DNA of 64,000 bases from an uncultured Gammaproteobacteria bacterium. GTDB lineage: Bacteria > Pseudomonadota > Gammaproteobacteria > Steroidobacterales > Steroidobacteraceae. Shown piece by piece: positions 2,481 to 58,527 of the stretch. The notes under the pieces are model-generated. The model was given only the letters and a program-made list of their open reading frames with translations, had not been told where the DNA came from and did not search any database. Position 1 is the first letter of the stretch, and every line of letters begins with the position of its first letter. The translations under genes were made by a program, and so were the position numbers. The stretch lies in assembly GCA_963804465.1 (NCBI GenBank), contig CAWDQL010000011.1:3884-67883 (forward strand), in the 5' to 3' direction.

Positions 2481-2640
2481 TGGCTCCCGCGGTTGTACCA
2501 CAGGAACCTCCTAAGTCACTGAGTGCACGGGAGTTGCGCGACCTACGTGATCGAGTACCCGGCGTTAACCTTACCGTATGGGCGTGCAGTACTCTCTTCC
2601 AGTACTAGGTGCGTCCGGCTTCGTACAGCTTCAGCGTACT
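2481..2640. repeat. Copy D (most diverged) of the tRNA-Asn-3'-end-complementary intergenic repeat family
   Basis: TGGCTCCCGCGGTTG preceded by AT-rich taagtaattgattat. Shares the blocks AAGTnACTGAGTGCAC, GAGTACCC and CGTATGGGCGTGCAG with copies A-C. Hairpins AGGA-acc-TCCT and AGTACT-ctcttcc-AGTACT sit at the conserved positions. Confidence 0.45.
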
Positions 2641-7338: not shown

Positions 7339-7549
7339 CGGAGACTCCCTTGATGGACGCTACCAACGAGACGTCAGGGCTAGGCCAGAAGAGGATATTG
7401 CGTGTTGTTGACGCTAAGAAGAACGAACACGCGAGGCGCAGGATGAGTATTAACTGTGCTGTACGTTGCCGCGGCGCGCGGCATTGCTTTGTTTGTAGTT
7501 GAATGATTTAGAGTAACTTAAGCGCAGAATGCATTGAAATATAAGTAGA

Positions 7550-7720
7550 TGGCTCCCCGGGTTGCGGCGGGAGACAGTAGCGCAAGTACCTGAGCTGCGC
7601 GGAATTCTTGCCAAGCTTTCGGCGCGGCTAGCCGGTAGCAGCCCCGCGAAACGTGGGCTGCGAGGATTTCGCGTGAGATGCGTTGAGAGTGGCGATGCAC
7701 CTACTGGCAACGAGCGGAAC
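7550..7720. repeat. Copy A of the tRNA-Asn-3'-end-complementary intergenic repeat family
   Basis: TGGCTCCCCGGGTTGCG...CGCAAGTACCTGAG...GGCTAGCC...GCAGCCCcgcgaaacgtGGGCTGCGAGGATTTCgcgtGAGAT. Preceded by the decamers agcgcagaat/gcattgaaat and TATAAG. Lies in the intergenic gap between the phosphoesterase gene and lctP. Confidence 0.6.
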
Positions 7721-21030: not shown

Positions 21031-21290
21031 GCGATCAGGGGAACCCGGGACCCGACATAAGGCCATTATTCGTGTAGGTGGGGTCGGTATCGGGCAAGTC
21101 GGTGAGTTCTGAGTGTGTGCCGCGTGGGCTCGTGCCGGGTGCGAGCCCACGCCTCTTAGAACCACCGGCGAGATGGCTAACGACCAATCGCTCTAACGGG
21201 CCGGCGACCAGTTCGCTCAAAAAGCGTGCCCCTACTGAAGAAAAGCATGAGCCGGCGGTGTGCACGGAACTGCTGGAATTATAAGGTTAT

Positions 21291-21465
21291 TGGGCTCCCC
21301 GGGTTGCAGTCCGAGTGTCTCGCAAGCCATTGAGTGCACAGCAATCCCGTCCGATCCGTCGAGACGACTACCCCTGCCGTTATCCCGGCAAACGTGGGCT
21401 GCGAGGATCGGGCGTGATCGCTGGCGTGAACTGCTGAGCAAGCTACGCCAGTTGACTTGGTTCTA
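21291..21465. repeat. Copy B of the tRNA-Asn-3'-end-complementary intergenic repeat family
   Basis: TGGGCTCCCCGGGTTGCagtcCGAGtgtCTCGCAAG...GACTACCCC...AAACGTGGGCTGCGAGGATCgggcgtGATC. Preceded by tgcacggaac/tgctggaatt and TATAAG. Confidence 0.6.
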
Positions 21466-29447: not shown

Positions 29448-29727
29448 GATTGGGTGCCGAACTCGTAAAGTGCCCATAGTATCGCGCAGGTCTGCGGCTC
29501 CCGAAGGCAAGCCCTCATTTTCAGAGCGGACCTTTCCAATCGGTAATCTTCAGGGCTTTCTTTGCGGCCACGCCAGCTGTGATCCGCCTTGCAAGTGCGC
29601 CCCATCGAGCGATGCGCGCGAGAGTCACCTTCACCCTATCAGCCACCGTGGCGGACTTCGGGTGTTCAGGGTATTAAGCTATCTACTACCTGAGATAGAC
29701 TCAGTAATATAATGATATATAATGAAT

Positions 29728-29772
29728 TTGCCCCCCGGGTTGGAGTCGAACCAACGACCAACGGATTAACAG
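29728..29772 (-). other. Isolated 3' half (anticodon loop to 3' end) of a tRNA-Asn(GUU) gene; att-like direct repeat
   Basis: Minus strand reads CTGTTAATCCGTTGGTCGTTGGTTCGACTCCAACCCGGGGGGCAA. It is 40/45 identical to the same part of the intact tRNA-Asn at 58453..58527, with a compensatory T-stem change (GTTGG/CCAAC vs GTAGG/CCTAC). No 5' half is present. Confidence 0.75.
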
Positions 29773-29890: not shown

Positions 29891-29996
29891 GTGTCGCGCG
29901 GACTAAGTCACTGCACTGAATTTGCACGGAATGGCCAACGGAGTTTCGCGGCTTTGGTGCATTTGGTCGGGCGATGGCTCCGTGCAATTCCGTGCA
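29891..29996. repeat. Iterated 10-nt TGCACnGAAT sites (2 direct + 2 inverted) within a 48-nt block repeated at 54662..54708
   Basis: tgcactgaat (29912-21) and tgcacggaat (29923-32) on the top strand. gctccgtgca (29977-86) and attccgtgca (29987-96) are their reverse complements. gtgtcgcgcggactaagtcactgcactgaatttgcacggaatggcca is about 80% identical to 54662..54708. Confidence 0.5.
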
Positions 29997-30162
29997 CTGC
30001 GACCCTCGGGGTGTAATTCCGTTGCTCGCCGGTTCGATTCCCGCGTGCATGCGTCCAATTGTTCCTTGTTGCCGAAGGCGGCATACATGCTTGGGCGACA
30101 AATTCCCATTGCCTTCTTGACGTCACTGAGCCGCCTCGCATCCGCAAACGGTTGGGAGCTGA

Positions 30163-54661: not shown

Positions 54662-54950
54662 GTGTCGCGCTGAGTAATCCGTGCACTGAATTTGCACGAA
54701 ATGACCACAAAAGAGGGAAACGTGAGCCGCTAGGGCACACTCAAGTGCTTGAATTACGCGCAATTTGGCTCCCCGGGTTGGGGCGCGGACGGTCGCGCAA
54801 GTACCTGAGGAGCAAGGAATTCCAGTCAGGCTTTCGGTGCGGCTACCCCTGTGGCAGCCCCGAGAAACGTGGGCTGTGACGATCCCGCGTGGGATAGCCG
54901 CCGAGCTCAGATCCTCGCGGTGTCACACGAGCAACTGCTTTTTGGTCTGA
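54662..54950. repeat. Copy C of the repeat family including its left arm (48-nt block shared with 29891..29938)
   Basis: The left arm gtgtcgcgctgagtaatccgtgcactgaatttgcacgaaatgacca spans 54662-54708. The core TGGCTCCCCGGGTTGGGGCGCGgacggtCGCGCAAGTACCTGAG...GGCTACCCC...GCAGCCCcgagaaacgtGGGCTGTGACGATCCCgcgtGGGAT starts at 54766. Confidence 0.6.
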
Positions 54951-58416: not shown

Positions 58417-58452
58417 GAATCGATAGAAGGATTAGTGTGTAAGTATTTGAAA

Positions 58453-58527
58453 TGGCTCCCCGGGTAGGAATCGAACCTACGACCAACGGATTAACAGTCC
58501 GATGCTCTACCGCTGAGCTACCGGGGA
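58453..58527 (-). tRNA. tRNA-Asn (anticodon GUU)
   Basis: Minus strand reads TCCCCGG TA GCTC AGCGGTA GAGC A TCGGA CTGTTAA TCCGT TGGTC GTAGG TTCGATT CCTAC CCGGGGA G CCA. 75 nt, full cloverleaf, encoded CCA. Confidence 0.9.

Follow-up and report, generated by a model that had tools for sequence, protein, structure and literature searches.

The stretch of DNA analyzed here (the window, 64,000 nucleotides of a contig from an uncultured Gammaproteobacteria bacterium of the family Steroidobacteraceae) contains an intact tRNA-Asn gene and four homologous intergenic repeats of ∼160 nt, designated copies A to D. A first-pass annotation, made from the sequence alone, had placed the four copies in one orientation and left three explanations side by side: a small RNA able to pair with tRNA-Asn, fossil attachment (att) junctions produced by serial integration, or a tRNA-derived dispersed repeat. 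The positions and common orientation of the copies were confirmed by a covariance model (R1) built in this analysis, from which the copy boundaries in Table 1 are taken. All four copies lie on the + strand, and a scan of the window with this model found no full copy beyond D, A, B and C.

Each copy consists of a short segment common to the tRNA-Asn gene, hereafter the core, followed by ∼150 bp that we refer to as the arm. Four exact matches to the 12-mer GGCTCCCCGGGT are present in the window, all of them on the + strand (in copies A, B and C, and at 58454 in the tRNA-Asn gene), against a chance expectation of ∼0.01 matches in 128 kb under a uniform model; the core position of copy D reads GGCTCCCGCGGT in place of the exact 12-mer. 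It had been noted that each copy starts with the reverse complement of the tRNA-Asn 3′ end. This is correct as a reading of the + strand, on which the tRNA-Asn gene reads TGGCTCCCCGGGTAGGAATCG, but it does not make the copies antisense to the tRNA, because the gene itself lies on the minus strand. The copies are therefore direct repeats, in the same orientation, of the final 13 nt of the tRNA-Asn gene. All four of them, as well as a 46-nt fragment of tRNA-Asn, are located downstream of the tRNA 3′ end and in the orientation of the tRNA, with the spacing tRNA-Asn, 3.7 kb, C, 25 kb, fragment, 8 kb, B, 14 kb, A, 5 kb, D. Identity to the tRNA 3′ end (degenerate in copy D), a downstream position and the same orientation are the properties of att repeats. 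The intact tRNA-Asn is the integration target (attB, or the attL side), and the core common to the copies corresponds to its 3′ end.

Table 1. The tRNA-Asn gene, its fragment and the repeat copies in the window
Feature	Position	Strand	Score or method	Remarks
Copy D	2481..2637	+	52.6 bits	Core TGGCTCCCGCGGT; degenerate, other subfamily
Copy A	7550..7709	+	130 bits	Core and arm; trailer-like flank 7505-7549
Copy B	21292..21451	+	98.8 bits	Core GGGCTCCCCGGGT and divergent arm
tRNA-Asn 3′ fragment, 46 nt	29727..29772	+	blastn 40/40 window, 92.5% identity	From 3′ end to anticodon loop
Copy C	54766..54926	+	123 bits	13-nt tRNA-derived core TGGCTCCCCGGGT and ∼150-bp arm; 3.7 kb downstream of tRNA
Flank right after tRNA 3′ end	58417..58452	+		Resembles integrase-proximal arm (..gTAAGTatTTGAAAt)
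Intact tRNA-Asn (GTT)	58453..58527	-	ARAGORN; Rfam tRNA model 72.9 bits	

The 46-nt fragment, which is co-oriented with the copies and is presumably the tRNA-Asn fragment mentioned in the first-pass annotation, is presumably the junction of a different type of island, and probably of one whose integrase crosses over in the anticodon loop. Its T-arm is of the TTGG/CCAAC type found in relatives and not of the TAGG type of the window's own tRNA-Asn.

Integrase linkage and relatives of the repeats

Relatives of the copies were collected from several sources. A scan of 185,579 species genomes, with a pattern that left the first 10 nt free, gave 19 matches, 18 of which were due to chance; the sole real relative (contig L010) lies beside a RelE-type toxin-antitoxin pair and keeps TGGCTCCCCG, although this part had been left free in the search. 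In metagenomes, 36 of 37 matches were real and all came from soil, and no match to the element pattern was found among IMG/VR viral contigs. Additional copies were recovered by nhmmer and the covariance model, giving three copies on L049, two on each of L010, L047, L055 and L056, and one in L066-L068. All copies on any one contig have the same direction (four in the window, three on L049, and two on each of L010, L047, L055 and L056). The conserved blocks reported for the four window copies proved to be real, in that AAG-N4-TGAG, CTAcCCC, gAaac.TGGGCTG and cgtGagAt are conserved across 39 distinct copies.

Several of these relatives adjoin a tyrosine integrase gene. On L048, an intact 389-aa integrase (PF00589, E = 3e-25) is directed into the core, from which its stop codon is 33 nt away, and the arm follows; the C-terminus of an integrase has the same integrase-core-arm layout on L034 and L052, and an integrase remnant is present on L010. 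We identified ∼70 relatives of the L048 integrase at ≥55% identity. Those on long contigs are located at the end of phage-like elements with terminase, SSB, AAA_25 helicase-like, Toprim and MerR/HTH_17 genes, and read toward a tRNA-Asn gene on the opposite (minus) strand, which is 146 nt away in L072 and L073, ∼50 nt in L078 and ∼1 kb in L070 and L074. L078 is an IMG/VR viral contig, carries the only relative of the integrase found there and ends at tRNA-Asn. The tRNA-Asn genes beside these integrases adjoin aminotransferase-uvrB-tRNA-Val-thrS, as does the tRNA-Asn gene of the window.

With regard to the integrase genes themselves, the stop codon lies 33-43 nt ahead of the core in L010 and L048. 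The frame of L034 (3-466), like that of L052, passes through the core without a stop and continues for 42 nt into the arm; the C-terminal tail of these integrases would therefore differ in the integrated form. In L079-L081, a 73%-identical integrase was found at the end of a Prim-Pol/PriCT_2 island beside skp-lpxD-fabZ-lpxA, with no tRNA-Asn gene or core near it, and this integrase family thus also uses at least one other target.

Between integrase and core, two direct CCGGACAAA(y) repeats 11 nt apart are followed by a TAAGTNATTGAT motif, which on the other strand fits the consensus of integration host factor (IHF), WATCAANNNNTTR; these are sequence matches only. In phage lambda, attP consists of a core flanked by the P and P′ arms, which contain arm-type sites for integrase and sites for IHF, and the order of features is int-attP-sib. 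Judged by these motifs, the integrase side of the elements has the layout of a putative lambda-type arm: as in lambda, the integrase gene reads toward the core, with two arm-type-like direct repeats and an IHF-consensus-like motif lying between. The conserved ∼150-bp arm on the other side of the core has a second candidate IHF motif, YAA-N4-TTGA, which is present in 23 of the 39 copies and is again a match to sequence only. The best far-arm match to the integrase-side CCGGACAAA repeat is weak (8/11 by eye), and we do not claim it as an arm-type repeat. The arm sequences are unrelated to those of lambda.

The sequences to the left of the core are of two kinds, namely the 3′ trailer of tRNA-Asn (..attgaaatataagNNNNt) and the 3′ end of an integrase gene. 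The trailer directly follows genuine tRNA-Asn genes in L064 (gattgaaatataagtaat/TGGCTCCCCGGGTTGGAATCGAACC) and in L066-L068. The flank of copy A is clearly similar to the L064 trailer (score 31 vs 16.4 ± 2.6 for shuffled sequences, 0/200 as high), and the AT-rich left flank of the 46-nt fragment is trailer-like as well (26 vs 17.0 ± 2.4, 1/200 as high). The similarity to integrase-side arms is more modest, both for the 36-nt flank of the window's tRNA-Asn, which was compared with the arms of L072 and L078 (21 vs 15.8 ± 2.3, 11/200 as high), and for the flank of copy D (21 vs 15.1 ± 2.4, 5/200 as high). The latter (2440-2480) is a remnant of the integrase-side arm with a perfect IHF-consensus-like TAAGTAATTGATT, and the former, by its resemblance to these arms, is a probable remnant of a lost integrase-bearing element. 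The TATAAG and the TGCnnnGAAT-like sites that had been noted upstream of the copies belong to the tRNA trailer or to the element arm and not to a promoter of the element, as illustrated by gattgaaatataagtaat in L064.

The presence of native-looking tRNA trailers at copy A and, less clearly, at copy B raises the question of whether the whole unit of trailer, tRNA 3′ end and arm could be a resident chromosomal feature that receives islands, such as a pseudo-attB or decoy, or a gene on the minus strand whose 3′ end resembles a tRNA. Such a feature would account for the occurrence of several trailer-type junctions within a single window, and integrase-bearing arms are indeed joined both to the unit and to real tRNA-Asn genes. 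However, the arm side looks mobile (toxin-antitoxin modules, IS elements and variable cargo), one trailer is joined to different arm subfamilies, and neither an acceptor-stem partner nor a tRNA-like fold was seen on the minus strand of the copies. We therefore regard a resident feature as highly unlikely.

The length of the core match tracks the tRNA: it is 13 nt against the tRNA of the window, 15-16 nt against the TTGG-type tRNA-Asn of L061, L064 and L068, and 23 nt in the subfamily comprising L029, L032, L037, L038 and L041, where it extends into the T loop (TGGCTCCCCGGGTTGGAATCGAA). Identical left flanks are joined to differing arm subfamilies (L036 and L040 vs L057; L032 and L037 vs L050), as expected from exchange at the core. 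Moreover, the window copies are closer to copies of other contigs than to one another. Copy A is 84% identical to L034 and 79% to copy C, copy C is 86% identical to L034, and copy D is 60% identical to L062 and at most 42% to its siblings in the window, which points to separate acquisitions rather than local duplication.

These relationships also bear on the proposal of a tRNA-Asn-derived, non-autonomous dispersed repeat, similar to miniature inverted-repeat transposable elements or short interspersed elements and spread by transposition or local duplication. Several intergenic copies without coding capacity would fit such a repeat, and metagenome contigs often break at the element, suggesting a multi-copy sequence. 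On the other hand, every visible arrangement is co-oriented and downstream of tRNA-Asn, an integrase abuts the element, the window copies come from different subfamilies, and there is just one strict copy in a related contig of 4.28 Mb. The first-pass annotation had stated that terminal inverted repeats are lacking, and we likewise found none common to the copies. A dispersed repeat is thus the least credible of the explanations considered, and very unlikely.

The DNA on the arm side differs from contig to contig. To the right of the arm, 13 contigs have a RelE-like/HTH toxin-antitoxin module, in either orientation, and other contigs have IS110, IS66 or rve-type elements or unrelated cargo. 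The toxin starts at +248 and reads away from the arm in L010, L034, L036, L040, L052 and L058, and the antitoxin of the same pair ends at +153 on the other strand in L027, L030, L039, L043, L050, L056 and L061; these opposite orientations imply inversion or independent capture of the module. L049 has three co-oriented copies of three different subfamilies within 5 kb (at 1153, 4876 and 5921), and its middle ‘island’ of only ∼1 kb, consisting of an arm and a toxin-antitoxin pair, may be the smallest unit propagated.

A 4-kb contig, L061, shows in order a trailer, core, arm, toxin-antitoxin module, IS66 fragment, histidine kinase gene, flank, core and the body of tRNA-Asn. In L027, the tRNA-side flank of L061 is joined to a core and arm, which is the junction expected after excision or in a tandem array. 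In comparison with L061, the contigs in which an integrase-side arm, core and far arm are contiguous (L048, L034 and L027) look like attP, and tandem junctions would fit them too. L061 itself was considered as a complete small island and rejected, as the open reading frame beside the tRNA encodes a histidine kinase and not an integrase, and an IS66 fragment lies inside.

Variation among close relatives is observed at the same site. In the relatives compared, whose aminotransferase is 93-94% identical to that of the window, the aminotransferase-uvrB-thrS side is syntenic and the DNA after tRNA-Asn differs, as is typical of accessory DNA. L064 has no copy within 7 kb of tRNA-Asn. L066-L068 have one copy 3.4 kb from it, enclosing an S9 peptidase gene and a PIN/FitA toxin-antitoxin pair and followed by the core genes yaeQ and rluA, and the tRNA-proximal flank of the L068 island looks trailer-like. 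In the window, 56 kb with five repeats follow tRNA-Asn. The content after tRNA-Asn thus varies, as the first-pass annotation had suggested should be checked, and no precise empty site for any individual window segment was found among these relatives.

On the basis of their anatomy, linkage to integrase genes, co-orientation and the variability of the region among relatives, all of which are observed, the copies are very probably attR- or tandem-attP-type junctions of elements with a tyrosine integrase (prophages, or phage-like or P4-like islands) whose integration site is the 3′ end of tRNA-Asn. This agrees with the second of the three explanations offered initially. In such a model, the first 12-15 nt of a copy (23 nt in one subfamily) would be the identity segment common to element and tRNA gene, within which strand exchange takes place, and the following ∼150 bp would be an arm that belongs to the element and lies on its integrase-distal side. 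On integration, the tRNA would be restored, and a partial tRNA 3′ end would remain beside this arm at the distal end of the island. The array of the window would then be the outcome of tandem accretion, in which related elements integrate one after another into a single hotspot, with their integrases being lost afterwards. From the sequence of the blocks conserved in the arm, we infer that they may be bound by proteins of the recombination complex, as IHF-like and integrase arm-type sites, and segments that have lost their integrase could presumably still be moved by an integrase supplied in trans.

Tests for a structured RNA

The conserved blocks and hairpins of the copies had also suggested a small-RNA family whose 5′ end pairs with the acceptor end of tRNA-Asn, and searches of Rfam and for covariation in a larger alignment had been proposed as checks. 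At the gathering thresholds of Rfam, the only matches in the window were two tRNAs, and a search with copy A at E ≤ 10 returned nothing relevant; the copies thus match no known family. Folding energies of the 145-nt element were not different from those of dinucleotide shuffles (mean z-score −0.2 on the + strand and −0.36 on the minus strand), with no strand preference, and the predicted folds differ between family members. No sigma-70-like promoter or intrinsic terminator was found in or at the element.

It should be noted that small inverted repeats do recur at fixed positions: H1 after GGTTG, H3 (GCAGCCC..GGGCTGC) and H4 (GATCTC..GAGATT). The hairpins described as conserved in position but not in sequence therefore exist, but no covariation above controls accompanies them, and they are about equally stable on the two strands, with mean energies on the + and minus strands of −4.0 vs −4.7 kcal/mol for H1, −10.7 vs −11.2 kcal/mol for H3 and −5.5 vs −5.1 kcal/mol for H4. 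Because the hairpins fold equally well on both strands and lack covariation above controls, the argument that T-G pairs require the top strand to be the RNA fails.

Covariation was analyzed in alignments of up to 40 copies. RNAalifold, run with 4 and with 36 copies on both strands, gave no signal above controls, nor did a scan of all column pairs on both strands. For a 29-pair model on the MAFFT alignment (36 copies), 75.0% of the cells were paired vs 74.6% in shuffled alignments (150/500 as high), and covariation was 0.140 vs 0.141. When the alignment was fitted with the covariance model (40 copies), a procedure that favours structure, the corresponding values were 74.4% vs 73.5% (49/500 as high) and 0.148 vs 0.140 (82/500 as high). 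Approximately one-fourth of the cells are unpaired in this model. A larger alignment without statistically supported covariation is an outcome that the first-pass annotation had itself listed as speaking against the RNA reading. The power of these tests is limited by the 39 distinct sequences available, many of which are closely related.

These results bear on whether the ∼150-nt region might act as a functional + strand RNA, either in cis, forming the 3′ untranslated region of integrase mRNA while the element is excised (attP form), or in trans, as a small RNA that pairs with the acceptor end of tRNA-Asn. In lambda, sib mediates retroregulation of int, and integration separates sib from int. 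The order of integrase, core and conserved region with small hairpins mirrors the lambda int-attP-sib arrangement, the hairpins recur in position, a few changes are compensatory (ATCCC/GGGAT in copy C and L028, AGTACT/AGTACT in copy D), and the arm is more conserved than the remainder of the islands. However, nothing comparable to the long RNase III-type hairpin of sib is evident here, the supposed promoter is the tRNA trailer, and percent paired and covariation equal those of shuffled controls even when the alignment is fitted to the structure. That the copies are complementary to the tRNA, which had been the starting point, is a trivial consequence of their repeating part of the tRNA gene. 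With no family match, energy signal, strand bias or covariation, a functional RNA, whether sib-like or pairing with tRNA-Asn, appears improbable.

Two other functions were considered and rejected. A riboswitch or leader does not fit, as different copies have different neighbouring genes, which are found in all orientations. With regard to a coding role, one frame is open through the commonest subfamily and closed in others, and indels are not multiples of three.

Probable serial integration at tRNA-Asn

Integration scars of this kind result from a well-known process, and nothing here indicates a new structured RNA. Genomic islands and prophages at asn-tRNA genes are flanked by direct repeats of the tRNA 3′ end, and composite islands arise by tandem accretion, sometimes with long repeats between them; islands at the asn1 loci of Klebsiella pneumoniae and the high-pathogenicity island of Yersinia, with direct repeats of 16-17 bp, are examples (PMC4891358). 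The array described here shares with them the target at the tRNA-Asn 3′ end, the use of a tyrosine recombinase, a short repeat (12-23 bp compared with 16-17 bp), the presence of several islands in tandem at one hotspot and the longer repeats that sometimes separate composites. It differs in its hosts, which are represented by metagenome-assembled genomes of soil Steroidobacteraceae, and in the integrase family. Furthermore, the repeat is extended here by an arm of ∼150 bp that is conserved across many islands, and no integrase is left in the window.

A second comparison is offered by cis-mobilizable elements (CIMEs), which lack an integrase and keep their att sites, and by the accretion-mobilization of ICESt1-type elements (Pavlovic 2004; Bellanger 2011; reviewed in PMC5704250). 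The segments of the window are similar to CIMEs in being bounded by att sites, in lacking integration genes and in accumulating in tandem as newcomers integrate into a resident att site. In contrast, no conjugation genes were seen here, and the integrase-bearing relatives are phage-like or P4-like rather than conjugative.

Several observations weigh against the copies being junctions left by serial integration. First, no integrase, excisionase or transposase was detected by Pfam search among the ∼35 largest genes of the window (no PF00589 match), and mobility at this locus is therefore historical at best. Second, no second core was found in the 10 kb upstream of the integrases. The far-end position of the arm rests on the integrase-core-arm contigs together with L061 and L068, because both ends of one intact integrase-bearing element were not seen. 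Third, the left flanks are trailer-like at copy A (clearly), at copy B (weakly) and at the tRNA fragment near 29.7 kb, and integrase-arm-like at copy D and at the tRNA. In its simple form, serial integration would leave just one native trailer, and this would lie at the outermost junction. It may be that some elements carry arms resembling a trailer, or that rearrangements form part of the history. Finally, conservation is higher in the arm than elsewhere in the decayed islands, which leaves room for a function of the arm itself.

With respect to the last point, the arm is the only part common to islands with unrelated cargo and is conserved after loss of the integrase, and therefore the arm could have a role of its own. 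It might be more than a passive scar, for example a modular recombination site for the capture of cargo in trans, or the source of a sib-like transcript that ties integrase expression to the integration state, but we consider this rather unlikely. If the modular-site version were true, the locus would be an integron-like cassette array anchored on a tRNA gene and stacked by a phage integrase acting in trans.

For genome and metagenome analysis, the combination of core and arm, as captured in covariance model R1, is a signature with which the borders of such islands can be found in soil metagenomes. The present case also calls for caution in genome scans: when an intergenic repeat is conserved and begins with the complement of a tRNA end, an attachment-site repeat is the simplest reading, and small hairpins conserved in position in four copies are no evidence of RNA.

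Gene content and minor features of the window

On one side of the tRNA-Asn gene lie the core genes encoding the aminotransferase, uvrB, tRNA-Val and thrS-infC-rpmI-rplT-pheS. The window belongs to a metagenome-assembled genome from soil (GCA_052148015.1), and its placement in Steroidobacteraceae is given by homologues of the aminotransferase. The genes near the copies are ordinary and have all orientations relative to them; they include phospholipase C, lactate permease-lutABC, katG, a resistance-nodulation-division (RND) efflux operon, a cbb3-type oxidase, a P-type ATPase, Nramp and NDH-2. The array marks ∼56 kb of this Steroidobacteraceae genome as accessory DNA at a tRNA-Asn hotspot, and functions such as lactate utilisation, catalase-peroxidase, the RND efflux pump, the cbb3-type oxidase, Nramp and NDH-2 thereby belong to the accessory part.

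Some smaller features were observed near the junctions. A strong terminator-like hairpin with a T-run lies on the + strand at 7467-7493 (TGCCGCGGCGCGCGGCA TTGCTTTGTT), ∼65 nt to the left of copy A, and no gene precedes it on the + strand. A gene lost from the end of an island may have left it behind as an orphaned terminator; the integrase terminator of L070 and L072 has this position. Close to the 46-nt tRNA-Asn fragment, the + strand contains a T-arm-like sequence (GGTTCGATTCCCGCG, 30018-30041) at which ARAGORN calls no tRNA and which may be another tRNA gene fragment.

In addition, the 10-mer TGCACNGAAT forms two clusters, with three occurrences each at 29912-29996 and 54676-54702, just within both ends of the 25-kb segment that separates copy C from the tRNA fragment. 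They include a 24-mer, GCACTGAATTTGCACGRAATGRCC, that is repeated exactly at 29913 and 54683, and such 24-mer pairs occurred in 0/100 shuffles. The clusters look like candidate arm-type protein-binding repeats of a 25-kb island. A sequence related to them, TGCACGGAAC, is present at 21261, to the left of copy B.

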